From the NCBI GenBank assembly GCA_964404815.1, contig CAYOLR010000003.1, positions 1 through 38,256 on the forward strand: a stretch of DNA of 38,256 nt. Reading direction: 5' to 3'. Below, one piece after another: positions 4,930 through 37,063 of the stretch. Source of the DNA: an uncultured Halobacteriales archaeon (lineage in GTDB: Archaea > Halobacteriota > Halobacteria > Halobacteriales > Hikarchaeaceae). Each line of letters starts with the position of its first letter. The stretch's first letter is position 1. Below the pieces are notes generated by a model, which had not been told where the DNA came from, did no database searches, and was given only the letters and a program-made list of their open reading frames with translations. The position numbers and the translations under genes are program-made.

Positions 4930-5110
4930 AGGGACGGCTCACCGCGATTGACATCCTCACCCGCCTGGAGGCAGGGTGAATCCCAAGCGTTCGGATATTA
5001 AGGTTTGCAGTCTGCCTGTTCTTGTGGATGGAACGCACCCGTGGTTAAATCGAACAGGTAGACTCCGGGCTGTGCCGACCAGCCGTTACTCATATCCCCG
5101 GTCGGGGGAG
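4930..5110 (-). ncRNA. Probable TnpB omega-RNA / sense-overlapping transcript at the right end
   Basis: Inferred from position over the tnpB 3' end and right-end hairpin; the predicted guide is the flank TCGCGGTGAGCCGTCCCTGA. Boundaries approximate. Confidence 0.55.
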
Positions 5111-5678
5111 TTTGAGATATCTTTCGACGGATATCACCGCACCGTTCACGTCTGCGTTCATCGTCGTCTCACACGAGTCACAGACGAACAGCCCACGCTC
5201 GACGCGATTGGCGTCACGAATCTTCCAACAACACGAACAGGTCTTGGATTGGTTTTCTTCACCCACACGGAGAACCAGTATCCCGTGTTCTTCGGCTTTG
5301 TATTCCACCAGGTTCGTGAACCGGTCGAACTCCCACCCGTGCAACTTTTTGTTTCCCCCCTGGCCGCAGTTTCGTGAATCGCCGTCGTCATCCCCTCGAA
5401 ATCGCTCATGTCGCCAACGGCGATATTCTCGATACCTTCCTCGACACACCACTCAATGTGGGGTTGTCTCCAACGTCGGCCTGCTTCATAACTACTCATG
5501 GATAGAATAGTATTACTAGTGTCGGTTGACCGTGGAATATCCTGCCGGGCTGTCCCTCTGTGGACTGTTACTCACAATGTCGGCTTCATCCCCCCGACTG
5601 TCCGGTCCTCGGTTCCGATTTGAGCGGTCGGAACACTCGTCCCTCACGGGAAGGCGGGGGAATTCTCCTCGACTCTCT
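4948..5678 (-). mobile_element. Internally deleted IS200/IS605-family (IS1341-type) element
   Basis: Minus strand: TTAT followed by left-end hairpin (GAATTCCCCCGCC...GGGGGGATGAAGCCGACA), a tnpB 3' remnant, and a right-end hairpin TCACCCTGCCTCCAGGCGGGTGA ending GATGTCAA at 4948. Confidence 0.8.
4998..5499 (-). pseudogene. tnpB: TnpB (RNA-guided endonuclease) C-terminal remnant, frameshifted
   Basis: Fragments IAVGD, LHGWEFDRFTNLVEYKAEEHGI, SKTCSCC, RVERGLFVCDSC and MNADVNGA (RuvC-III) and tail MSNGW.AQPGVYLFD...DCKP* lie in different frames; the N-terminal two thirds is absent. Confidence 0.88.
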
Positions 5679-7590: not shown

Positions 7591-8676
7591 CTACCCAGCG
7601 GCTCGGCTGGTCGTCGGGCTACTGGAGGAGACGGGCTCAACAGCGGGGAGACGGAGCTCCACTACGCTCCCGCTCGGGTCGTTCCGTTCGAACGTTACCG
7701 TTCCCCCGTAACTTTCAACCACCCATTTGACGAGCCAGAGCCCAAGTCCCTCGCTGTGAACGAGGTCGGTTTCGTTTGCTCCTTGGAGTACCCGTCGTTC
7801 GTGCTCGGGGATGCCGGGGCCGTCGTCGGCGACCCGGACTACGATGTGGTCTGCCGACCGCCTGACCGAGATTTCGATCGACGGGGACGAGTGGCCGTGT
7901 TCGATGGCGTTTTCGAGGAGGTTGTCCAGAACCGAGGCGAATAGCGAATCCCCTCTCGCCCACGCTGACTCCGGAAGGTCCAGATCGACCGTCGTGTTGG
8001 GGTAGTTCGATCGGATCATAGACGTCCGCTCCCGGACGGTGGCGACGACGTCGATTCGTGAGGCGTCGTCGAGGGGTCCGATCGATTCAATCTTCCGGGC
8101 CGAATCGCTGAGGCTAACGACCTCCTGGATCTTTCGTCGAATTGATTCGAGGGTCGCTTCGTCACTTCCATTGTCGGCGTGAAGTTGATCGAGATATCCC
8201 AGCAGCACGTTCATGTCGTTTCGGATGTTGTGTCGAAGAACTCGGTTCATTACGACGTTCTTCCGGTTGAGTTCAAGCGCTTTTTCGTGTTCTTTCCGAA
8301 GCTCTTTCACCATACCAAGGAGCACGCCGACGACCCCGCCTGCGGCAATCGTGTTGACGAACAGTGTCGGGAACAGGTATAGGATGCGGGTTTGAACCTG
8401 GACGACCGTGAGAATAACGCCTATAAAGGTCGGGATGGAGAGCCCCACCGCACTCCATGCCGCGATGTTCCATATGAGGTCCTCCGGGAGGTCGCTCAGG
8501 TAAAGCCGATACCCGGCATAGAGGAGCGAGCCCGCCATCATTCCCGCGATTACGGTCCCCAAAACGTTGATGATGGCGGGTGCATCGGTAATAACGAAGT
8601 ACCCGAGTAAACTACTGAGCAGCCCAAGACCAGTTCCGATGAGGTAGCCAATCCCGAGCTGTCGTTTGGTGACCAT
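7591..8676 (-). CDS. Membrane-bound sensor histidine kinase (about 4 TM)
   Basis: Hydrophobic N-terminus, H-box RVLRHNIRND, N-box NLLENAIEH, DDGPGI, GLGLWLV. Confidence 0.93.
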   Translation of the reverse strand: MVTKRQLGIGYLIGTGLGLLSSLLGYFVITDAPAIINVLGTVIAGMMAGSLLYAGYRLYLSDLPEDLIWNIAAWSAVGLSIPTFIGVILTVVQVQTRILYLFPTLFVNTIAAGGVVGVLLGMVKELRKEHEKALELNRKNVVMNRVLRHNIRNDMNVLLGYLDQLHADNGSDEATLESIRRKIQEVVSLSDSARKIESIGPLDDASRIDVVATVRERTSMIRSNYPNTTVDLDLPESAWARGDSLFASVLDNLLENAIEHGHSSPSIEISVRRSADHIVVRVADDGPGIPEHERRVLQGANETDLVHSEGLGLWLVKWVVESYGGTVTFERNDPSGSVVELRLPAVEPVSSSSPTTSRAAG

Positions 8677-9993: not shown

Positions 9994-10061
9994 GTTCGGG
10001 ATCCGGGAGGCGTGGCCAGAAGGTTAATTCGGTGGGATGTCGAGGGTTTACCGCAAGGGTC

Positions 10062-12881
10062 ATGTCAGATGATACCACATCCGATTTCGAACAGGGGCGG
10101 CTGTTCGAACTGTACACGAAATACGTAACCGAGCCCGAGTCGAAACGAGACGTTTACGGATATACGATCCTCCTGGTAGGCTATCTCCTGGGGATGGCCG
10201 GAATGGTAGTGTTCCTGATCGGCCCGTCGGGTGGTGATCTCGACCCGATAACGGTCCTGGTCCGGGAGATTTCGATCCCGGCGGCCGGCCTCGGTCTCGT
10301 TATTACATTGTTCGGGATCGAGCTCATGCTCCCGGTGAAACGCAAGGGCATCGCCATCGGGGGCGTGGGAACCGCAATGGGGCTCACTGCGGCGGGCTGG
10401 TTCATCGTGGCGTATCCACAGAACTGGTCGATCGGCACGCCCGATTACAGCTCAGCGATTATCACCCTCTACACGGCCGGGATCGCGCTGGTCGCCGGGG
10501 TGGTAGTTATGGTGCCTGTCATCACCGGCGAACGATCGTACTTCGCCGCGGCCCGGGAGGTGCTTGGTCAAGACCATCCGGACATCATGCTCGGCCGGAC
10601 GGATCGCGGGGGGCTGTTCACCATTTTTAACCGTGGCTCGGACTGGACTTGGCGGCTGATCGATCAGGCAGCGATCGCGGAATCGACCGACGCCTTTCTC
10701 TCCCGCCTCGAGACCGAAAACCGGGTTGACCGGGTGAAGGATCTGGTAGACCAGGCGGCCCTCCTCGAAATCGCTCACGCCGCCTTCCGCCTGTATCGGG
10801 TCGGAGAGGACCGTTGGCGATGGCTCTTGATGCGCGAAAACGGGAGCGTGGTGGCGGACTCCGGTGACGAATATCCGTCACGGGAGGCAGCCGAGTCATC
10901 GGTCAACGACCTCAAGGAATTCGGGCCATCGGCGACGGTAATTGCGATCGACGAAGCCGCTTTCGAGACATATCCCGCCGATGGGGGATGGAAATGGCGG
11001 CTGATAAATGACAGACGGGAGACGCTGGCGACCAGTGCGACTCCAGTGGAGGACAAGGCGGCCGCCAAACGGGCGGCCGACGCGTTCGTCGAACGGGCGG
11101 TGGACGCGCCGCAGCTCACGATCGAGTCATATGGCATCGAACTCCTCGAGGGTGATGACGCTGGGTGGCACTGGCGGCTGCTAGACCCCGGTCTCGAGGT
11201 CTTGGGCGGGGCAACGCGAGCCCATCCCAGCAAAGGGGTGGTCGAGGACGCCGCCTATGATCTTTTGGAGCGGCTCGACGGCGCGGCGCTATTGGATGGT
11301 ACCGAGTCATCCTATGACCTCTTCGAGGACCCGTCGGGTAACTGGCAGTGGCGGCTCGTGACCCCCGAGAATCGGCGGATCGTCACGGGGAACGGGTCGG
11401 GCGCGAACCCCGGCGCGGTCAGGTCCGAGGCGCGGGCGTTCAGAGACCTCGCTCCCGGCACAGATATCGTCGAGATCCGGACGCAGGACTTCGAGGTGTA
11501 TCAGGCCAATGGCCATTGGCACTGGCGGCTGGTCGACAGCGATCGGGCGGTCCGGGCGGAGAGCGTGGAGGCATACGACTCCGAGGAACAAGCAGCATCC
11601 GCGATCGATCGGCTCCGCCAGCAGGCCCCCGACGCGGACCTCATCGAGTTCGAAACTGCAGCCTTCCAGATCTATGAATCCGAGGAGGGTGGGTGGCGAT
11701 GGCGGCTCATCGACGAGGATGGTAACGTCCTGGCCGATTCGAGCGAGGGAGAGTACGATTCGCGGGATGGGGCGACGGCGGCCATGGCCACACTAAAGGA
11801 GTACGCACCCGAGGCCGAGCAGCTCGAGATCGAGACGGCTGCGTTCGAACTGTTCGAGGATCCTGACGAGGGCTGGGGATGGCGACTGGTGGACGATATT
11901 GGCGAAACCATCGCTCGAGGATCCCGTCGATATCCCACGCGGGACGAGGCCCACGATGACATGGATGCGCTGCGAGGGGAAGTCGAGGACGTCCGCGGCC
12001 GCGTCATGTCGGATGGTATCTTCCAGGTCTACCAGGATGGGGCCGATGAATGGTGGTGGCGGTTCGTCCGGCCCGATGGGACTGACCTTGCCGAGAGTCC
12101 CGAAGGGTTCGGAACCCGCCACGAGGCCGAGGATGCGATCGACGAACTCGTCGACGACCACGTCGGCGCCGGCATCGCCGAGGTCGGTCAACTCGCCGTA
12201 GTGGTCGACGAATCCGGCGAGGATTGGACCTGGCGGTTCGTCGACCAGGACCGGATTCCGATCGCCGAGAGTACGCGCCAATACGAGACGCGGAACGCCG
12301 CCCGACAGGCGATCGGCGATGTCCAGTCGGCGGTTGATACGGTTACGGTCTTCGAGATCCGGGATGCCGCGTTCTTCGTGACGGATGGAGAATGGACCTG
12401 GGCACTGTTCGACGAGGCTCACGAGGAGGTCGCCGTTGGCGCAGAATCGTTCGACAGCCTGGAGGCGGCAGAGGCGAATGTGGATACCGTCACGAATCGG
12501 GTCGACAGCGCGGGGTATATCGATTACGAGGGAGCGGCCTTCGAAGTTCACGACACCGATGACGGGTGGCAGTGGCGACTCATCGACGAAGCTCGGAACG
12601 TGATTTCGGCGAGCACGGAAACGTACGAGAGCAAACAGGCCGTCGAGGAGACGGTCGAGGCGATCAGAGAGGAACTCACGGAGGCGTCCATTCTGGAGAT
12701 CGAACGGGCCGCCTTCGAGTTTCACGAGGACACCCAGGGCTGGCGCTGGCGACTCATCGACGAATCGGGTAATGAACTCGCCGAAAGCCTCCAGGCTTAC
12801 GAAAGTCGAACCGATGCACGCGAGGCGATGACGACGGTGAAGGATTTCGCGCCGGAGGCGTGGACGTCGGTCGCGGATTGA
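10062..12881 (+). CDS. Membrane-anchored protein with 4 TM segments and 13 tandem YegP/DUF1508-like repeats
   Basis: Hydrophobic N-terminal domain followed by 13 units of about 58 aa: F-x-x-Y-x-D-x-x-x-W-x-W-R-L...A-x-S...Y-x-S-R-x-x-A. Start at MSDDTTS. Confidence 0.9.
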   Translation: MSDDTTSDFEQGRLFELYTKYVTEPESKRDVYGYTILLVGYLLGMAGMVVFLIGPSGGDLDPITVLVREISIPAAGLGLVITLFGIELMLPVKRKGIAIGGVGTAMGLTAAGWFIVAYPQNWSIGTPDYSSAIITLYTAGIALVAGVVVMVPVITGERSYFAAAREVLGQDHPDIMLGRTDRGGLFTIFNRGSDWTWRLIDQAAIAESTDAFLSRLETENRVDRVKDLVDQAALLEIAHAAFRLYRVGEDRWRWLLMRENGSVVADSGDEYPSREAAESSVNDLKEFGPSATVIAIDEAAFETYPADGGWKWRLINDRRETLATSATPVEDKAAAKRAADAFVERAVDAPQLTIESYGIELLEGDDAGWHWRLLDPGLEVLGGATRAHPSKGVVEDAAYDLLERLDGAALLDGTESSYDLFEDPSGNWQWRLVTPENRRIVTGNGSGANPGAVRSEARAFRDLAPGTDIVEIRTQDFEVYQANGHWHWRLVDSDRAVRAESVEAYDSEEQAASAIDRLRQQAPDADLIEFETAAFQIYESEEGGWRWRLIDEDGNVLADSSEGEYDSRDGATAAMATLKEYAPEAEQLEIETAAFELFEDPDEGWGWRLVDDIGETIARGSRRYPTRDEAHDDMDALRGEVEDVRGRVMSDGIFQVYQDGADEWWWRFVRPDGTDLAESPEGFGTRHEAEDAIDELVDDHVGAGIAEVGQLAVVVDESGEDWTWRFVDQDRIPIAESTRQYETRNAARQAIGDVQSAVDTVTVFEIRDAAFFVTDGEWTWALFDEAHEEVAVGAESFDSLEAAEANVDTVTNRVDSAGYIDYEGAAFEVHDTDDGWQWRLIDEARNVISASTETYESKQAVEETVEAIREELTEASILEIERAAFEFHEDTQGWRWRLIDESGNELAESLQAYESRTDAREAMTTVKDFAPEAWTSVAD

Positions 12882-13700: not shown

Positions 13701-15293
13701 GTGCAAGAATCGACAGACATCCTCGTATTCGCCCCTGACGAGGACCTCTTTGACTCGGTGGAAACGGCCCTCGAACCGCTTGGGTCGTCGGTCATTCGCG
13801 CTCGGACGGCTATCGAGACGGTGAAATACCTGGATGACCGTCGGTTCGGTGCCGTGATATGTCCGGCGGCGGAAACGACGCCCGAACCCCCGAGGTTCGT
13901 CGAACTCGTCCACAACGAGTCTCCGAGCGTCCCTGTCGTCCTCGTGGGCACGGCGCCCGACACCGATTCGATCCGCCGTGCCGTCGAAGCCGGAGCCGCC
14001 GCTCATGTCGAGGCCATCGGCGTCGACCTCCGGAAGGAACTTACGACGATCGGCTTTGAGACACGAATCCGTGACGAGCTAGATCGACACAACCGACTCG
14101 GCCGTGTGGTCCGCGAACTGGGCCAGTCGCTCTTCACGGCCACGACGGTCGACGAGGTCGAGCGGCTCGTGTACCGGCGGCTGTCCGAAGCTGGCCTATA
14201 TCAGTTCATTTGGGTTGGGGCCCCGGGCGATGACGGGAAAATCGACCTCCACGTCCCGATCCCGAGTACTGTCGCCGCGACAGAAATTCCGGGGATCGAC
14301 GCGGAGGCGGGAGCGGCGAAAGTCGACCACGCGCTCAAGTCTGGCTCGATCGAGGTAGTCGGGGACGGCGAGGGGTTTACCCGTCGGGTCCTCAGCGGGT
14401 CCACCGGACCGGACACGGACAATGGACCGGGTAATGACGCTGGGCTCACGACGGCGATAGTTCCCTTCGTCGGCGAGGGGTCGGTCGTAGGGGTCGGGGT
14501 CTTTGCCACGGAGAGGTCTCGCGGGATCGATTCGGCCGAGGCATCGGTACTGGAGACATTGAGCCGGTTGACCGGGACGGCGATCTGGCTGGTAGAAGCC
14601 CGTTCGGAACTGCAGCGGACCCGCCAACGCGTCGAGGAGTTTGCCGGTCTGATCGCCCATGAAATCCGCAATCCGCTCGCGATAGCGATGACGCAACTGG
14701 ATCTACTTCGTGAAGGGGAGGACGGCCAAGCCATCGATCGGGTCGATTCCTCGCTGCAACGGATCGAACGACACGTCGAGAACCTGGTAACTCTGTCGCG
14801 GGGTCTCGATATTGACGACCTAACGACCCAGGCGATCGCGGAGACGGCATCGGCGGCGTGGGAGTCGCTCGAGACGCCGGGCGCGGAGCTCGTAATCGAG
14901 TCGTCGAGGCCACTGGCGGCCGATCACGACCTGCTGATGCAATGCTTTAGTAATCTGTTTCGCAATGCCCTCGAGCAGGAGACAGAAGGAAAAACAGTCG
15001 TTCGCCTCGGGAGCTTCGACGAGGGGTTCTATGTCGCTGATAATGGGCCGGGAATTCCGCCCGAGGAACGAGAGCGGGTGTTCGAATCGGGGTATTCGCA
15101 GAGCGCCGGCCTCGGCATTGGTCTCACCGTCGTTCGTGAGATCTGTCGCGTCCACGGGTGGTCGATCGAGGTGAAGGAAAGCCGAGAGGGTGGCGCAAGA
15201 TTCGAGATCAGGACGGAGGGGCCTGACGATAACGACGGGTCCGACGACCGGCTCTCCGGGCCGTTCGATACGGACACCGTCACCGATTTTTAG
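13701..15293 (+). CDS. Cytoplasmic hybrid histidine kinase: degenerate receiver, GAF, HisKA, HATPase
   Basis: Receiver-like N-terminus, GAF (YQFIWVG...IVPF...VGV), H-box AHEIRNPL, NLFRNA, DNGPGI, GLGIGL. Confidence 0.9.
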   Translation: MQESTDILVFAPDEDLFDSVETALEPLGSSVIRARTAIETVKYLDDRRFGAVICPAAETTPEPPRFVELVHNESPSVPVVLVGTAPDTDSIRRAVEAGAAAHVEAIGVDLRKELTTIGFETRIRDELDRHNRLGRVVRELGQSLFTATTVDEVERLVYRRLSEAGLYQFIWVGAPGDDGKIDLHVPIPSTVAATEIPGIDAEAGAAKVDHALKSGSIEVVGDGEGFTRRVLSGSTGPDTDNGPGNDAGLTTAIVPFVGEGSVVGVGVFATERSRGIDSAEASVLETLSRLTGTAIWLVEARSELQRTRQRVEEFAGLIAHEIRNPLAIAMTQLDLLREGEDGQAIDRVDSSLQRIERHVENLVTLSRGLDIDDLTTQAIAETASAAWESLETPGAELVIESSRPLAADHDLLMQCFSNLFRNALEQETEGKTVVRLGSFDEGFYVADNGPGIPPEERERVFESGYSQSAGLGIGLTVVREICRVHGWSIEVKESREGGARFEIRTEGPDDNDGSDDRLSGPFDTDTVTDF

Positions 15294-19839: not shown

Positions 19840-19881
19840 TTTCTCAGATATAGTTAAGTGACAGGACCGCGGAGCCCTCAA

Positions 19882-21018
19882 GTGATCGTGGTGCCGGAGA
19901 AGCCGTCGGTCTCGAAGCGTGAACTGAGTTACGCGTTTTTCCTATCAGCAGGTGCCCTTTTCACCGGCGTCTTGATCACCAATGGGACCTATCTGCTGCG
20001 AACGGCCCAGCCGACGGTGTCTTTGGGTGTGTTATCCGGTGTCGTCCCGAGCGTGGCCTTCGCCTCATCTCGGTGTTGGCTCCCCCGGACCCAACTCTCC
20101 GGCGAACAAATCTGGCGGGTGGCCACGTGGGGCGGGCTTGGAATCGCAGTCTTAACCGCTGTGGATGTCGGACTCGTGCTCACCCACCTCTACGCGGAGC
20201 CCGTTATCGGAGGCGGGCTGGCCAGCCTGATGGGTCAGGTCGCTGCCGGCGGGGTCATTGGGGTCTTGATCGGTACCGCCTGGGAACTGAACATGAACGT
20301 CCGTAGCGCCAAGGAACAAAACAGCGTCCTGAACCGGATCCTTCGGCACAACATCCGAAACGATGTCAACGTCATTCAGGGCTCGGCGAAGTTGATCCGC
20401 GATGGTAAGGGCGACCCGGCCAAGCATGCTGATCGAATTATGGCCCGCTCGGAGGAGCTTATGAAGGTAAGTGAACAGGTTCGGCGGATTCAGGACGCGA
20501 ACGATCCGGATAGGCTATCACCCAGCGTAATCGACGTTGCCGACGTGGTTCGAGATAGGATGGAGGTACTTCGCCGGGCACATCCGGAGGTAACCGTGGA
20601 ATCGACCGTCCCGACGCAAAGCTTGGCCTACGCTGACGGGTCCCTCGATACCGTTATTGATAATCTCCTGGAGAACGGGGTCGAGCATTCGGAGGGACCG
20701 ACTCGACTGTCGATTTCCGTCGGCCGCGACGACCGGGCCGGCTGGGTGACAGTGGACATCACCGACAACGGACCGGGGATCCCACCGGCCGAACTCGAAG
20801 TGTTGGAGAATGGCCCTGAGACCCAGCTGAATCACAGTACGGGGACCGGGCTGTGGATCGTGAAATGGTACACGGAACAGAACGACGGCCGTTTACAGAT
20901 CGATTCATCGGCGGCCGGCACCCGGGTCCGACTCGCTCTCCCGGCGGCCATTCGTCGGCCCCCGGCCGGCGGCCCGCTCGATTGGGCACGCTGGTTCGTC
21001 CGTCTAACCGGAGTTTAA
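19882..21018 (+). CDS. Membrane-bound sensor histidine kinase (paralog of 7591..8676)
   Basis: 4 TM, RILRHNIRND, NLLENGVEH, DNGPGI, GTGLWIV. Start moved to GTG 19882 or later because a TATA box (GTTAAG) lies at 19853. Confidence 0.92.
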   Translation: MIVVPEKPSVSKRELSYAFFLSAGALFTGVLITNGTYLLRTAQPTVSLGVLSGVVPSVAFASSRCWLPRTQLSGEQIWRVATWGGLGIAVLTAVDVGLVLTHLYAEPVIGGGLASLMGQVAAGGVIGVLIGTAWELNMNVRSAKEQNSVLNRILRHNIRNDVNVIQGSAKLIRDGKGDPAKHADRIMARSEELMKVSEQVRRIQDANDPDRLSPSVIDVADVVRDRMEVLRRAHPEVTVESTVPTQSLAYADGSLDTVIDNLLENGVEHSEGPTRLSISVGRDDRAGWVTVDITDNGPGIPPAELEVLENGPETQLNHSTGTGLWIVKWYTEQNDGRLQIDSSAAGTRVRLALPAAIRRPPAGGPLDWARWFVRLTGV

Positions 21019-33194: not shown

Positions 33195-34307
33195 ATGGTC
33201 TCGAAAGGCGACCTCGGCGTGGGATACCTAGCCGGGATCGGGCTGGGCTTCATCGCCCTGCTTGTCTGGCGGTTTACGACATCCGTCGAACCGGCGTTTA
33301 TGTCATTGATCGGCACCACAACCGGGGTCATGTTGGCCGGCGCAATGGCCTATTTGGCCTACTGGCTCACCCAGTGCGACCTCCAAGCTGAGCACATTTG
33401 GACTGTGTCGAAATGGGGAGCGATCGGCCTGACACTTCCTATGGCGGCGACGTTCATCGTGGCGGCCGTTCAGTCGGGATCAATCGCCACCCTCGAGCCC
33501 AGCGTATTGATCAACAACGCCGCCGCGGGCGCCGTCATCGGATCGCTCTTCGGTGCGATCACCGAACTCGAAACCGAACATGGCCGTGCAGCCGAGCTCA
33601 ACCGGCGAAACATCGTCCTGAATCGAGTGCTTCGCCACGATATTCGAAACGACGTGAGTGTCCTCCTGGCCTATGCAGAACGGTATCGGGATGACCTCTC
33701 GACGGCTGGACAGGAGTTCGTCGAAACAGTGGAGGGCAAGGTCGACGAAATTCTGGCGCTCACCGAAGCGGCCGGGTGGGTCGACGATCTGGAGGATAGC
33801 TCAATGGAGGAGTCTGTGGATGTGGTCTTACTAATCGAGGAAAGCTGTCGGTCATTCGGGCGGACCCATCCAGATGTAAACTTCGAAATCGACATGCCGA
33901 GCGAGGCGTGTGTGCGGGCCGATCAAATGCTCCGAACGGTGGTTGATAACCTAATCGAGAACGCCATCGAACATCATGATGCCGATCCACATGTCACGAT
34001 CACGGTTCGAACCGTCACTGGGGAGGGCGTCGTCGAAATCACGATCGAGGACGATGGGCCAGGAATCCCCGACCAATATCGGCGTCAACTCGAAGACTGG
34101 TCGACATTTAACGTCGAACACGGCCCGCCGGGCCAGGGTCTCGGACTTTGGTTAGTCCGGTGGTTCGTCGACTCGTACGACGGTTCCATCCACGTCGAAG
34201 ACCGGAGGCCAAAAGGGACAGCGATTACTTTACGGCTACCGGCCGTTGACACAATGGACGCTGTGCAACGGCCGGTGGTTGCGGACGGTGGTCTTTCCCC
34301 GCGATAA
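33195..34307 (+). CDS. Membrane-bound sensor histidine kinase (third paralog)
   Basis: 4 TM, RVLRHDIRND, NLIENAIEH, DDGPGI, GLGLWLV. Confidence 0.93.
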   Translation: MVSKGDLGVGYLAGIGLGFIALLVWRFTTSVEPAFMSLIGTTTGVMLAGAMAYLAYWLTQCDLQAEHIWTVSKWGAIGLTLPMAATFIVAAVQSGSIATLEPSVLINNAAAGAVIGSLFGAITELETEHGRAAELNRRNIVLNRVLRHDIRNDVSVLLAYAERYRDDLSTAGQEFVETVEGKVDEILALTEAAGWVDDLEDSSMEESVDVVLLIEESCRSFGRTHPDVNFEIDMPSEACVRADQMLRTVVDNLIENAIEHHDADPHVTITVRTVTGEGVVEITIEDDGPGIPDQYRRQLEDWSTFNVEHGPPGQGLGLWLVRWFVDSYDGSIHVEDRRPKGTAITLRLPAVDTMDAVQRPVVADGGLSPR

Positions 34308-34699
34308 TCGGTCCCGCGAGCGCGTCTAGTTCGAGGAGGTGGCCGTTATGCGACTCTTTGAATCCTCTGCCAACGGTCAGGGATTGGGGGGTATCCAATG
34401 GTAGACCGACGGTGATCGTGGTGCGATAAGGGCCGTCGGTGATCCCCCCAGGTTATCGAAGCGAGCCAACGTAAATAATCCCCAGCAGGGATTTCTGGCT
34501 CTGAGAAAAGTTCCGGATCGGTTACCACAGCCGCGGTGGCTCGGGAGGCGTCGCCAATGTGAAAAAACAGTGGGTTGTGTGGGGCCGGACGAGTATATGT
34601 CAATTGGGGATTAATTCTAACGACCGCTTAAGCGACCGGATAGCCCAAAATCGAGTAACACGACGCAAGGACGGTGGCGGTGTGCCGTCAGCGTTTAAG

Positions 34700-34792
34700 C
34701 ATCGATTAACATTAATATATTAAATTACGGATAATTTGTTCGTTAGACCATTTATTTACATATTAGATATATTAGAAAAATTTTATATAAAT
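34700..34792 (+). promoter_or_regulatory. Very AT-rich upstream region with BRE/TATA for the peptide gene
   Basis: AGAAAAA-TTTTATATAA at 34774-34790, about 27 nt before ATG 34817; palindromes TTAATATATTAA (34712-34723) and AAATTA-CGGA-TAATTT (34722-34737). Confidence 0.7.
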
Positions 34793-34816
34793 GCCGGCGA
34801 TGGGAACACCCGGACC

Positions 34817-34954
34817 ATGTCCACTGAACACACGGTACCGAACTACCTGGCGGAGCACCCACGAATGACCGGCGTCCTCTTCATGTTGTTCCTACTGCTC
34901 ACACAGGCGGGACAGGTGGCTGGAGCGGGTGGGTCTGTGACGATTGGCCCGTAA
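34817..34954 (+). CDS. 45-aa signal-peptide-like precursor (DUF7503-like, ends ...TIGP)
   Basis: MSTEHTVPNYLAEHPRMTGVLFMLFLLLTQAGQVAGAGGSVTIGP: basic residue, hydrophobic core, small-residue cleavage region, short tail; strong leaderless promoter. Confidence 0.85.
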   Translation: MSTEHTVPNYLAEHPRMTGVLFMLFLLLTQAGQVAGAGGSVTIGP

Positions 34955-37063
34955 TTACTGATCGATTAGCTCGTAGCTCCAACACAAATCTCCATCGGAA
35001 CGCACCGGAACGTTCTCAAGAGAAAAGAATTCCGATAGTTCGGCCTGGGATGGGGCCGATGCACTAACGCGATTTGAGACCAGGCTGTGAAGGTCGTTCT
35101 CCCCAAGATGGGGGAGGAACATACTGCCCAGATCGATCCGCGAAGTGGGGTACGTGATGTATTCGAACCTTCGAGATGGCTCGTTCGCCGTCATTTCGCA
35201 TAAATACGGCACGGATTTCGGTTGCGTTAAGGCCATTCGGCCATCGCCTACGACGATATACCGACCCCCCATTAGACTCTCCCGTTCGGCGATTCCGAGG
35301 GCCGCGTACAATGGGAAACCACTGTTGAGGAGTTGGGCCAGTGTCCGACCGATTTTGATGGCGGATTCGTTGATTACATCGCTCAAGGTTACAATACCGC
35401 CGATGCTACCGGCCTCAATGAGATGTCGGCCCTGAGCGTACGATTCGCAAGCGTTGAGCAAGAACGAATCGACCGCCGCATCGTCCATCGTTGCCGCGTC
35501 CAACTTGCCATCGGCACATTCGAACCCCTCACCATCGATATGTCCAATGTAATGAACGAAATCGGTTTGGGTGTGGAGTACCTCCCGAAGCGAGGCCCGC
35601 GTGAGGTCCCGATGGAATGAAAGATCGAACGCCAGATCCTCCCGCGAGCCATAAATCTCCTCGATCAAGCCCTCCTCCGTATTCATCCGCCGATCGTTAC
35701 AGATCACTGTAATGTCGATATCGCCCCTCGTAGGTGATCGGTCGAGCCGGTTTTCATAGGCTGCCTTGACTGCCTTGCTCGCACCGATCGGGGTCCCATC
35801 GCCCAGCCAGACTTGTTCGGCCGCGTCGATGTTAGGGGGTCGAACAAACCGCGGCGATTGTGAAACGGTCACACCATCGCTCGACCGGGTAAAGGCCTCG
35901 GGTTTCGGGGGGTGATTCGGTTTCGACGACGCGGACCCCGCCGAGCGCTCCAGGGCGGCCTCCTGGTGAACCTGTACAAGAGCGAGGTCATCGACGAGGT
36001 AGGGGAGTAATTCGATAGCCGAAGGGTCGGGCCGCATGTGGGCGGCGAGTCCCCAGCGTGGCACGAGATCGGCAACCGTCGAATACGGAAGTTGTAGGTA
36101 CGACTCGAGGCGCTGCCCGATCGGTTGATCGTAGAGGGCCTGAAAGTCCAATGAAACGCGCGATTCGAGCCGACGGCGTTCATCGAGCGCGACGGGATAC
36201 AGCCCCTCCGTTCTCGTGACACAGTCGAGGAGGAAGACCTGTTTGAGGACCCGTTCCATTTCCTGTCCGATCCCATCGGTCGCTTCGAGATTGTGGACGT
36301 AGCCGTCGTCGGTGACGATACGGGGAGTTGGCCCCCGAACGACCGTCGCCCCGAGGTAAAAGGCGACCGACCCGGCCTGAAAGATCTCGGCTAGATTCGG
36401 ACGGAGTTCGATGGTGATTCCAGTCTCTGGTGCCGCCAGCTCACGGGGGATTTCAAGGGAATCTCCCATCTCCACGGTGGGCGGATGGCCCCGAAGCGTC
36501 GGGAACGAACGCTCGGGACTGGTGGATTTCAAGGCCGAGCCAAAGGTGGAAACGGCCGCCATGAGGTCTTCCGGGGCGGCGGTGGTCGTAACGGTCCCAG
36601 CGGGTCGTTCGTGCGTGGAGCGTGCGCCAATGGCCACATCGACCACCGAGCCGAAGTTCAGATTCATGGTATCGAGGTCAGAAGTAATTTCAATCGCCGA
36701 TTCGACCTCGAGGTAGAGTTTGATTGGCGCGTTGATCTCAACAACGTAATTCCCGGGCGGTACAGTTACGTCGGCGAACTGTTCGGCCTCCGCTGCCAAC
36801 CGACCGTCCCCGTCACGGACGTATAGCGCGACGACCGACGGTAATTCTAAGTGATCGGTTGCAACCTCGATTGCGGTTTCGACCGGAAACTGGAATACCG
36901 AAGGATCGATATCGACCGGGTCGATGGCGTGTTGCGTCGATAGGGTGTACCGATGGCGTTCGATGGGGTCGTAGACTTCGATCGACTCCATCCCCGAAAA
37001 CGTAACGAACGTCACGTCGTACTCCGTATTGATTGCCGTGTCCGGGTGACGTTTGAGGGCCAT
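34955..37063 (-). CDS. 702-aa protein with C-terminal caspase-like (CHAT / clan CD) peptidase domain
   Basis: DFVHYIGH.DGEG and FLLNACES (His/Cys dyad), GGIVTLSDV, YIVVGDG; N-terminal region with PERSFPTLRGHPP; SD GGAGGT upstream. Confidence 0.8.
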   Translation of the reverse strand: MALKRHPDTAINTEYDVTFVTFSGMESIEVYDPIERHRYTLSTQHAIDPVDIDPSVFQFPVETAIEVATDHLELPSVVALYVRDGDGRLAAEAEQFADVTVPPGNYVVEINAPIKLYLEVESAIEITSDLDTMNLNFGSVVDVAIGARSTHERPAGTVTTTAAPEDLMAAVSTFGSALKSTSPERSFPTLRGHPPTVEMGDSLEIPRELAAPETGITIELRPNLAEIFQAGSVAFYLGATVVRGPTPRIVTDDGYVHNLEATDGIGQEMERVLKQVFLLDCVTRTEGLYPVALDERRRLESRVSLDFQALYDQPIGQRLESYLQLPYSTVADLVPRWGLAAHMRPDPSAIELLPYLVDDLALVQVHQEAALERSAGSASSKPNHPPKPEAFTRSSDGVTVSQSPRFVRPPNIDAAEQVWLGDGTPIGASKAVKAAYENRLDRSPTRGDIDITVICNDRRMNTEEGLIEEIYGSREDLAFDLSFHRDLTRASLREVLHTQTDFVHYIGHIDGEGFECADGKLDAATMDDAAVDSFLLNACESYAQGRHLIEAGSIGGIVTLSDVINESAIKIGRTLAQLLNSGFPLYAALGIAERESLMGGRYIVVGDGRMALTQPKSVPYLCEMTANEPSRRFEYITYPTSRIDLGSMFLPHLGENDLHSLVSNRVSASAPSQAELSEFFSLENVPVRSDGDLCWSYELIDQ

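Follow-up and report, generated by a model that had tools for sequence, protein, structure and literature searches.

The window analysed here is a 38,256-nucleotide (nt) stretch from an uncultured Halobacteriales archaeon of the family Hikarchaeaceae (GenBank assembly GCA_964404815.1, contig CAYOLR010000003.1, positions 1 to 38,256 of the forward strand). Two genes meet tail to tail within it, a 45-amino acid (aa) open reading frame (ORF) of the Pfam family DUF7503 (PF24335) and a 702-aa ORF whose product is predicted to adopt a CHAT/caspase-type protease fold (Table 1). The TAA of the small gene directly abuts the TTA (34955-34957) that is the stop of the minus-strand gene. A reading made earlier from the DNA alone (hereafter the sequence-only reading) had singled out the pair as a candidate peptide-signalling module, on the grounds of a tiny signal-peptide-like protein, its very AT-rich promoter, the abutting stops, and intact HYIGH and LNACES motifs in the large protein; all four features were recovered in the present analysis.

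Table 1 Features of the convergent gene pair in the window (pN/pS, ratio of nonsynonymous to synonymous differences; KD12 and KD19, Kyte-Doolittle hydropathy over 12 and 19 residues)
Feature	Positions	Strand	Basis or remark
Presumed AT-rich promoter region of the small gene	34690-34816	+	GC 0.30 over 127 nt against 0.605 for the window
Small gene, 45 aa, DUF7503 precursor	34817-34954	+	ATG at 34817; stop codon TAA (34952-34954) included
Leader, aa 1-36	34817-34924	+	Entropy profile; pN/pS 0.15; KD12 2.6; KD19 1.65
Tail AGGSVTIGP, aa 37-45, predicted ligand	34925-34951	+	Hypervariable stretch plus Gly-Pro; co-fold
Large gene, 702 aa, CHAT-type (clan CD-like) protein	34955-37063	-	AlphaFold2 model, Foldseek, homologues
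N-terminal half, aa 12-375, beta-sandwich plus alpha/beta domain	35939-37030	-	Separate AlphaFold2 model
PTLRGHPP motif, aa 188-195, lining the predicted Gly-Pro pocket	36479-36502	-	Invariant; interface residues
CHAT/caspase-fold domain, about aa 410-610	35234-35836	-	Foldseek, E 4e-7 to 5e-4
Codon of catalytic-type His508	35540-35542	-	Invariant, 53/53
Codon of catalytic-type Cys539	35447-35449	-	Invariant, 53/53
C-terminal beta-sandwich, aa 615-702	34958-35221	-	Predicted tail contacts
Tail-pairing strand and loop, aa 642-652	35108-35140	-	Co-fold contacts with the peptide tail

The start assigned to the small gene by the mechanical ORF list is a TTG at 34736; the homologues favour the ATG. 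The match of the encoded protein to DUF7503 covers model positions 2-42 of 42 and scores 69.9 bits (cut-off 27; E 1.4e-19), and a genome scan repeated it at 68.3 bits. The lowest-GC 120-nt stretches of the whole 38 kb fall within the region upstream of the gene, which we take to be its promoter, judging by the usual geometry of haloarchaeal promoters. It contains a TATA-like TTTATATAAA at 34782-34791, about 31 nt ahead of the ATG, and the 5' leader of the transcript would therefore be very short or absent. Upstream of 89 homologous small genes, GC averages 0.31 over 70 nt and an A/T block is conserved about 27-40 nt ahead of the ATG, and the AT-rich upstream region is a feature of the DUF7503 family. 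The family is present in 166 of 201 sampled Halobacteria genomes, representing 56 of 67 genera, and homologues of the large gene in 181 of the 201, often in several copies; up to 6 DUF7503 and 7 large-gene match rows were recorded per genome. A word-indexed homology search with the 45-aa protein gave 10 proteins, and the family sample was taken from genome loci, with 89 sequences extracted from the best-scoring loci and an alignment of 84 members. NCBIfam gave no match for the small protein, and the PADLOC-DB models gave 0 families at E ≤ 1 for either the small or the large protein.

Entropy along the 84-member alignment divides DUF7503 proteins into a variable N-terminus, a conserved core of the form YLxxHP(R/K)MxGVLFTxxLLL(S/T)QAGxxA(A/G), 6-7 hypervariable residues and a terminal Gly-Pro. 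The layout described earlier for the single protein, a basic residue followed by a hydrophobic core and a small-residue A/G-x-A/G motif, is conserved across the family: the P(R/K) position is invariantly basic, the GVLFxxxLLL core follows, and the leader ends in a small-residue (V/A)-A-(A/G) directly before the tail that resembles a signal-peptidase site. The maximum KD19 of the small protein, 1.65, is a borderline value that would suit either a signal peptide or a membrane anchor. The tail columns have an entropy of 2.2-3.2 bits versus less than 1 bit in the core, and Gly-Pro terminates 87 of the 89 sequences from the best-scoring loci; the other two (loci L066 and L086) also have an odd gene arrangement. 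Over 305 pooled close pairs, pN was 0.046 in the core/leader, 0.34 in the tail and 0 over the 1220 sites of the Gly-Pro, where synonymous divergence was 0.66, and the pooled pN/pS values were 0.15, 0.48 and 0.00, respectively. Because of the DUF7503 match and of the pN/pS values for leader and Gly-Pro, we regard the ORF as a real gene and more than a chance frame. The tail value is not above 1, and we claim hypervariability for the tail, not positive selection. Within one genus the 35-residue leader is essentially identical and the 4-5 residues before the Gly-Pro differ in nearly every species, so that both entropy and pN bear out the expectation of a hypervariable tail behind a conserved leader.

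The large protein was modelled with AlphaFold2 from an alignment of 53 homologues with high confidence (predicted local distance difference test (pLDDT) 89.8, predicted template modelling score 0.89). HYIGH corresponds to residues 504-508 and LNACES to residues 536-541, and all 53 aligned homologues share H504, G507, H508, L536, N537, C539 and S541. In the model, His508 follows strand 500-506 and Cys539 follows strand 531-537. Foldseek matched the model with probability 1.00 to a SAVED-CHAT protein (8tl0, E 4.3e-7), separase (5fc2, E 5.1e-7) and gingipains (4ief and 1cvr), as well as to Csx29 (7zoq, 8eey, 7y84) and procaspase-3 (4jqz), and also returned the CHAT anti-sigma factor DdvA, with the fold matches falling in the C-terminal half. 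The caspase-like fold and the conservation of its His/Cys dyad, on which the sequence-only reading had depended, are thus both found, the former in the model and the latter in every aligned homologue. The most conserved motif of the large-protein family is PTLRGHPP, in the N-terminal half, within or close to which R185, R191, G192, H193, P194 and P195 are invariant among the same 53 homologues. Modelled alone, the N-terminal half is also well predicted (pLDDT 90.5); its best fold matches in the Protein Data Bank (PDB) were generic beta-sandwich glycosidases with template modelling (TM) scores of at most 0.21, and we do not accept homology to glycosidases on matches of this kind. Residues 1-375 retrieved only archaeal hypothetical clusters from the protein Atlas, and NCBIfam gave the large protein only a chance 10-bit match. 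A signal peptide or membrane segment was not found in the large protein (maximum KD19 1.42), which to judge by its sequence is presumably cytoplasmic. Among 8000 candidates scored, 1463 were homologues at E ≤ 0.001, mostly annotated as hypothetical and in a few cases as 'CHAT domain-containing' or 'caspase family'.

The linkage of the two genes was counted from either side. Starting from the small gene, 150 DUF7503 places were examined among the matches listed (80 further matches lie outside this count), and in 147 the DUF7503 gene lies tail to tail with a large-gene homologue within about 300 nt: 81 beside a listed large-gene match, 12 seen convergent at loci, and 54 of the remaining 57. One of the 81 was flagged 'other' by the script, and its locus also has a convergent large-gene copy on the other side. 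At the three exceptions the large gene is convergent 1 kb away, lies 1.4 kb upstream on the same strand, or was not found within 2.6 kb. As for the two loci with no terminal Gly-Pro, L066 has a 282-nt gap between the genes and L086 has the large gene upstream on the same strand. Starting from the large gene, the best 80 named loci in a species-representative genome collection all belong to Halobacteria, and a convergent DUF7503 ORF is present at 76 of them, with a gap of 9-186 nt; the remaining four comprise a partly masked copy with a visible ...GP end, two Haloplanus loci and one Halococcus locus. Two of the 80 are on plasmids (L119 and L181). For 20 large genes that had no listed DUF7503 neighbour, a lower-scoring DUF7503 partner was present in 16. 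Convergence of the two genes has persisted in at least 56 genera, in paralogous copies within genomes, on plasmids and, outside the order, in a distant lineage whose large proteins are 33% identical to that of the window and whose convergent partner, in 3 of 4 loci, repeats the layout of a basic residue, a hydrophobic core, VSA, seven residues and Gly-Pro; at L249 no partner was recognised. Adjacency across Halobacteria, proposed beforehand as a check on the pairing, therefore holds from both genes.

Some individual loci merit description. The sole orphan among the 150 places, L039 (G192:C9:103700-109000), has an intact DUF7503 ending in GP and no large-gene homologue within 2.6 kb. The genome of the window itself carries a second pair on another contig in the same convergent arrangement. 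This second pair is cut by contig ends (G000): the C-terminal 400 residues of the paralogue lie at C146:5794-7145 and an N-terminal piece at C332:3-869, and the two pieces may be halves of one large gene. In four places (G197:C16, G199:C69, G112:C4 and G180:C29) a second large-gene paralogue lies beyond the small gene in divergent orientation, and the peptide gene is flanked by two of them. The pair also occurs in Haloferax (L159, L166, L174, L184, L185, L188 and L191), and the Haloferax volcanii control genome matches both DUF7503 and DUF7504.

The two full-length proteins were co-folded with unpaired alignments, with two unrelated partners and one unrelated large protein as controls. The interaction prediction score from aligned errors (ipSAE) was 0.86, 0.87 and 0.86 in the runs, versus 0.00 for the best of the three controls; in a calibration that is roughly valid with user alignments, 58 of 80 solved complexes attained this mark, as did 2 of 110 mismatched pairs, and a score at this level lends support to binding and is no demonstration of it. 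Between runs, at least 48% of the contacts recur. The co-folding suggested in the sequence-only reading thus places only the tail in the large protein: the confident interface of the small protein is limited to residues 36-45, that is, the residue before the proposed cut and the whole tail. On the large protein it comprises residues 59-60, 109, 184, 187-190, 288-291, 615-618, 642-644, 647-652, 659, 662 and 679-685, which form a predicted groove between the N-terminal domain and the C-terminal sandwich; the lowest-error contacts are those of 647-652 with tail residues 39-43 (to 44) and of 187-189 with residues 43-44. Near the Gly-Pro the groove is nearly invariant (P60, E184, F/W187, P188, T189 and L190, flanked by the invariant R185 and R191), and along the variable tail its columns are hypervariable (1.9-3.6 bits versus a protein mean of 1.77). 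His508 and Cys539 lie outside the confident interface, which argues against the groove being a substrate cleft and makes the tail look like a ligand, not a substrate or an active-site inhibitor.

Co-variation between tail and groove was found at one position. For tail position -5 (V41 in the window), five of the ten columns with the highest mutual information, of 303, fall within residues 642-652 (hypergeometric p 2.9e-6, uncorrected for non-independence), compared with two of ten for position -6 and at most two for each of sixteen leader positions. Among sequences with Ala or Ser at -5, 34 have Thr at residue 647 and 12 have a different residue there; of the 36 with Thr, Val, Ile, Cys or Tyr at -5, none has Thr at 647. 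Three clade groups, defined separately, all follow this rule. On a tree built from the large proteins minus columns 640-655, 13 phylogenetically independent pairs that differ at -5 across supported branches gave on average 7.4 changes in the expected direction, 0.0 in the opposite direction and 5.6 unchanged (sign test, median p 0.016, range 0.002-0.06).

DUF7503 is not the only partner of the large protein. In Haloplanus (L093 in G094, L094 in G160, L095 in G182, L177 in Haloplanus litoreus at about 5067-5441 on the minus strand, and L153) the convergent ORF has no hydrophobic segment: after a hydrophilic beginning come between 2 and about 14 tandem units of 13 residues, in each of which a 4-residue spacer with a final Asp (xTAD) precedes the 9-residue core GN(S/G)G(G/S/A)(I/V)SGP, and the protein ends with the last unit. 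By their sequence these repeats resemble a polyprotein-type peptide precursor with caspase-like P1-Asp sites, and the Asp-ending spacers raise the possibility that the neighbouring caspase-like enzyme itself frees the units. Large proteins of a paralogous subfamily (subfamily B; L216-L245, L200, L206 and L209), 36-37% identical to that of the window, face, at 26 of 30 loci, a convergent frame ending in ...(R)AKR(V/I)S(T/S)Y(G/S)GP. Conservation in these micro-ORFs of 10-25 codons is confined to the final 11 codons, with coding periodicity (entropy at codon positions 1/2/3 of 0.47/0.17/1.19 versus 1.70/1.69/1.81 in the 13 codons upstream) and with all three stop codons in use; gene callers would mostly miss them. 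A third leaderless partner, in Halococcus thailandensis (L126, 5022-5252, minus strand) and at L104 (384-599, minus strand), is hydrophilic and Cys-rich, with four Cys in its last 20 residues, ends in ...ACTYSGP and has no ATG visible in frame. The N-terminal part of the partner has thus been replaced several times, and position, orientation and a GP-ending unit of about nine residues have been kept, suggesting that the C-terminal peptide is the functional unit.

The window is otherwise ordinary chromosomal haloarchaeal DNA, encoding FtsZ, a TmcA-type acetyltransferase, a GT2-family glycosyltransferase and several histidine kinases, and the pair sits among housekeeping genes; a mobile or defence context was not evident in the window, and no CRISPR genes or genes of cyclic-oligonucleotide-based anti-phage signalling systems (CBASS) were found nearby. 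The four histidine-kinase genes in the 38 kb lie at 33195-34307, 7591-8676, 13701-15293 and 19858-21018, and two of them have the archaeal 4TM sensor region HisKA_4TM. The kinase at 33195-34307 was considered as a part of the module and rejected, as it is not a conserved neighbour; the genes upstream of the small gene are conserved only as genus-level synteny. A 949-aa protein encoded at 10032-12881 (plus strand) has an N-terminal DUF7139 and three DUF1508 repeats. Across the 80 named loci the only recurrent neighbour is DUF7504 (PF24336), which in 39 of them immediately precedes the large gene on the same strand and may be a candidate substrate or effector of the protease. Its distance from the large gene is about 100-900 nt (L113-L192; for example L177:2168-2890, L184:2144-2857 and L180:1925-2872), it is sometimes fused to the halobacterial output domain HalOD1, and its Pfam number is adjacent to that of DUF7503. 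The window has no DUF7504 before the large gene, and 8 copies lie elsewhere in the genome. Neither the large protein nor the recurrent neighbours belong to a known modifying-enzyme family, and no exporter is conserved beside the pair.

From the linkage, the conserved layout and the predicted complex, the C-terminal 9-10 residues of the small protein are very probably a specific ligand of a sensor groove in the large protein. That binding of this ligand regulates the CHAT protease seems to us slightly favoured, by analogy with gated CHAT proteins. In the proposed mechanism, the variable stretch and the Gly-Pro with its free carboxylate would occupy the non-catalytic groove of the cytoplasmic large protein, where the invariant PTLRGHPP region would hold the Gly-Pro end and the hypervariable strand at aa 642-652 would read the variable residues through beta-strand pairing; occupancy of the groove would then switch the adjacent CHAT protease (His508/Cys539) on or off. 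The 45-aa precursor would be made from its own strong promoter. The likeness of the conserved leader to a Sec-type signal peptide makes export the most likely route: cleavage after G36 would release AGGSVTIGP, the peptide would re-enter the cell to reach its cytoplasmic receptor, and the result would be a species-specific signal of the cell's own making, comparable to the RRNPP pheromones. Export, cleavage and re-import, like the direction of control and the substrates of the protease, are steps that we infer. On the features of the leader, action as an exported signal is a tangible prospect that falls somewhat short of even, and we are evenly divided on the whole, that is, on a dedicated ligand-receptor module in which the peptide gates the CHAT protease, possibly as a secreted signal. 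The fullest form of the idea, the first genetically encoded archaeal peptide-pheromone system, with Sec-exported 8-10-residue GP-ending pherotypes read inside the cell by a co-evolving caspase-like protease, we put forward tentatively, as about a one-in-three matter of judgement. The pairing of peptide and receptor in the sequence-only reading is thereby sustained as far as linkage, fold, dyad, predicted docking and one co-varying site are concerned; its pheromone version is complicated by the non-catalytic groove and by the leaderless partners.

Several observations weigh against a peptide-gated module of this kind. The Pfam CHAT model (PF12770) matches the large protein below its cut-off (12.7 versus 24 bits, E 0.084, residues 480-598), and a profile of the 53 homologues gave 0 matches at E ≤ 1 against PDB sequences; we therefore describe the protein as CHAT-like by fold and dyad and divergent by sequence. 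The small protein has a pLDDT of only 46-48 in the co-fold, its own fold being uncertain. Gly-Pro ends 67 of the 76 partners of named large-gene loci and 9 of the 16 lower-scoring DUF7503 partners, with TID, TIR, TIS and SGI among the other endings. A partial Mantel test of tail against interface given the background, from which one gappy row (L044) was left out, gave r of 0.18-0.20 with 0 of 2000 permutations as high, and of 1000 sets of non-interface columns of equal variability, 141 reached or surpassed this r; because matched sets did as well, global co-variation is not counted as support. The -5/647 pair was chosen after the mutual-information table had been viewed, although contacts of 647 with residues 41 and 42 were among the least-error contacts of the co-fold beforehand. 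The co-variation of tail and partner that had been anticipated thus stands, in a phylogeny-aware form, for -5/647, and the global test is unspecific. No partner was recognised in 11 of 16 regions downstream of divergent paralogues (L201-L204, L207, L208 and L210-L214) or in 8 of 8 loci fetched for the f19 family. The f19 homologues (G208, G218, G228, G238 and others) are 25-30% identical, match only at about 153-614 and have no C-terminal sandwich; as they lack both the groove-forming sandwich and a recognised partner, they fit the groove being needed for the peptide. Against the export step in particular stand the receptor, which has no signal peptide or membrane segment, the absence of a transporter conserved beside the pair, and the Haloplanus, Halococcus and subfamily B partners, which have no hydrophobic leader. 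Given these leaderless partners, an intracellular ligand fits at least as well as a secreted pheromone.

An intracellular ligand could take the form of a regulatory peptide that is never exported and acts, in the manner of an antitoxin or of securin, as a labile inhibitor (or activator) of the CHAT protease. Arrest of peptide synthesis, through stress or virus-induced shut-off, would then release the protease, and the leader would only park or destabilise the peptide. We hold this to be rather unlikely. The cytoplasmic receptor, the leaderless partners and the missing linked transporter favour a ligand that stays inside the cell, and all three partner types with no export signal keep the C-terminal ...GP unit. 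The convergent genes with abutting stops imply independent promoters and possibly antisense interplay, and multiple copies that diversify within genomes (up to 6 DUF7503 and 7 large-gene rows), with two named loci on plasmids, are as in conflict systems. A secreted, pherotype-like signal is favoured in turn by the signal-like leader with its small-residue motif, by the separate strong promoter and by diversification between species. A purely intracellular role leaves unexplained why the commonest and most ancient form of the partner has a conserved signal-like leader and cleavage motif; by the positive-inside rule, such a leader should put the tail outside the cell. Neither protein is matched by PADLOC models, and a family found in 181 of 201 genomes, and set among housekeeping genes in the window, is unlike the patchy distribution of defence islands.

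The large protein might instead mature the small one, its groove serving as an exosite from which the CHAT protease or transpeptidase cuts beside a core peptide that acts elsewhere, as an antimicrobial, as a tag, or as a product like a ribosomally synthesized and post-translationally modified peptide (RiPP). The Haloplanus spacers, which end in Asp before each core (xTAD/G) as at a caspase-type P1-Asp site, would suit this, as would the small-residue motif just before the tail at the homologous position of DUF7503, the conserved-leader and variable-core layout typical of RiPP precursors, and confident co-fold contacts that begin at residue 36, exactly at the proposed cut. Because His508 and Cys539 lie outside the confident interface, because 10-13-aa micro-ORF partners need little or no processing, and because neither a modifying enzyme nor an exporter accompanies the pair consistently (only DUF7504 recurs, in 39 of 80), we consider maturation improbable; a co-evolving hypervariable specificity strand would also be superfluous for a maturation protease. 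Similarly improbable, in our estimate, is that DUF7503 stays uncleaved as a single-span membrane protein whose tail recruits the CHAT protein to the membrane. Its KD19 of 1.65 coincides with the customary cut-off for membrane spans, its leader is conserved beyond ordinary signal peptides, and its tail is predicted to bind the large protein, but a tether needs a cytoplasmic tail, against the basic residue that precedes the hydrophobic core, the leaderless partners cannot tether, and hypervariability of the tail between close species with identical leaders would go unexplained. That the two genes merely share inherited synteny and do not interact is a very remote prospect: the unspecific global Mantel control would agree with it, whereas convergence kept in at least 56 genera, in paralogues, on plasmids and in a distant lineage, repeated replacement of the N-terminal part of the partner with its C-terminal unit and position kept, the co-fold at 0.86 versus 0.00 for controls, and co-variation in independent pairs (on average 7.4 expected versus 0 opposite) all oppose it.

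A ligand-gated protease module of this kind invites comparison with two groups of known systems. RRNPP-type systems comprise Rap-Phr, PlcR-PapR, NprR-NprX, Rgg-SHP/ComR-ComS and AimR-AimP, of Firmicutes and their phages. The haloarchaeal pair shares with them a cytoplasmic receptor encoded beside a very small gene, an active peptide formed by the last 5-10 residues of the precursor (here a predicted interface at 36-45 of 45), the occurrence of precursors with and without a classical signal peptide (leaderless ones being known in Rgg-SHP and ComR-ComS), diversification of specificity between close relatives, and a conserved leader with a variable mature part and a partly fixed end (xxxRGA in arbitrium, xxxxxxGP here). 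SAIRGA is mentioned as an arbitrium peptide in PMC12240190. The haloarchaeal receptor differs in having no tetratricopeptide repeats (TPR), DNA-binding domain or phosphatase domain; Pfam found no TPR family in the large protein, no TPR protein appeared among the fold matches of the N-terminal half, and the sensor half is mostly beta and has no recognised fold. The output is a CHAT/caspase-fold protease, the genes are convergent, the host is an archaeon, and export and re-import are here what we infer. With a receptor that has no TPR, the pair is not an RRNPP member and is at most a functional analogue.

In SAVED-CHAT proteins and in TPR-CHAT/Csx29 of type III-E CRISPR (Craspase), binding of a ligand away from the active site switches the protease. 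These proteins (8tl0 for SAVED-CHAT; 7zoq, 8eey and 7y84 for Csx29) are the best structural matches, they likewise fuse a CHAT domain to a separate sensor, and the logic proposed here, a distal ligand gating the protease, is theirs. They differ in that the ligand of the haloarchaeal protein would be a ribosomal peptide encoded next door and not a cyclic oligonucleotide or a target-RNA-bound effector complex, and in that the haloarchaeal protein has no SAVED or TPR domain, CRISPR/CBASS genes nearby or PADLOC match. Separase and securin (5fc2, 7nj1, 5u1t) resemble the pair as a clan CD protease with large non-catalytic regions and a small extended-chain partner, but securin passes through the active site as a pseudosubstrate whereas the predicted site here excludes the dyad, and sequence shows no relationship beyond the fold. 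The 2 to about 14 head-to-tail 9-residue cores of Haloplanus, with their 4-residue spacers, recall yeast alpha-factor and multi-copy Phr precursors; the spacers end in Asp and not in dibasic residues, and there is no signal sequence. Set beside RiPP clusters, the pair has a leader-and-core-like precursor, and no known modifying-enzyme family was found in the large protein or its recurrent neighbours. In Pfam terms the small protein is a full-length DUF7503 member, and both DUF7503 and DUF7504 are families of unknown function. In its proposed working the system resembles an RRNPP pair or a ligand-gated CHAT protease, and it belongs to neither group.

Signalling between cells by peptides is characteristic of Gram-positive bacteria and of some phages. 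In Haloferax, reports of caspase-like activity go back a long way, to our knowledge with no convincing gene to account for it. Searches of the literature available to us found no publication on DUF7503, DUF7504 or this gene pair, and a term check in the archaeal RiPP survey PMC12144867 found nothing on the pair. In the introductions to PMC13464002 and PMC12240190, both recent papers on Haloferax quorum sensing, archaeal quorum sensing is called 'largely unexplored' and the disk-forming signal of Haloferax is said to be still chemically undefined; that of Haloferax volcanii is described as autoclave-stable, proteinase-K-resistant and ethyl-acetate-extractable (PMC12240190). On these reported properties we did not adopt the idea that the peptide is the H. 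volcanii disk-forming signal, as proteinase-K resistance and organic extractability argue against an unmodified linear peptide.

With the module come a candidate archaeal ribosomal peptide ligand that is widely conserved, a haloarchaeal protease family of clan CD type whose dyad is intact, and a proposed new form of CHAT gating in which a short peptide takes the place of a nucleotide signal and the sensor domain has an unrecognised fold. It would also give a function to two Pfam domains of unknown function. Since Haloferax species carry the pair, the module can be tested with existing genetics. Even if the peptide stays inside the cell, regulation of a protease through an encoded 10-residue specificity ligand would be out of the ordinary. 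If the peptide is indeed a pheromone, information on cell density or kinship would be turned directly into proteolysis and not into transcription, in a system present in about 90% of sampled haloarchaeal genomes, including those of the genetic model genus Haloferax.

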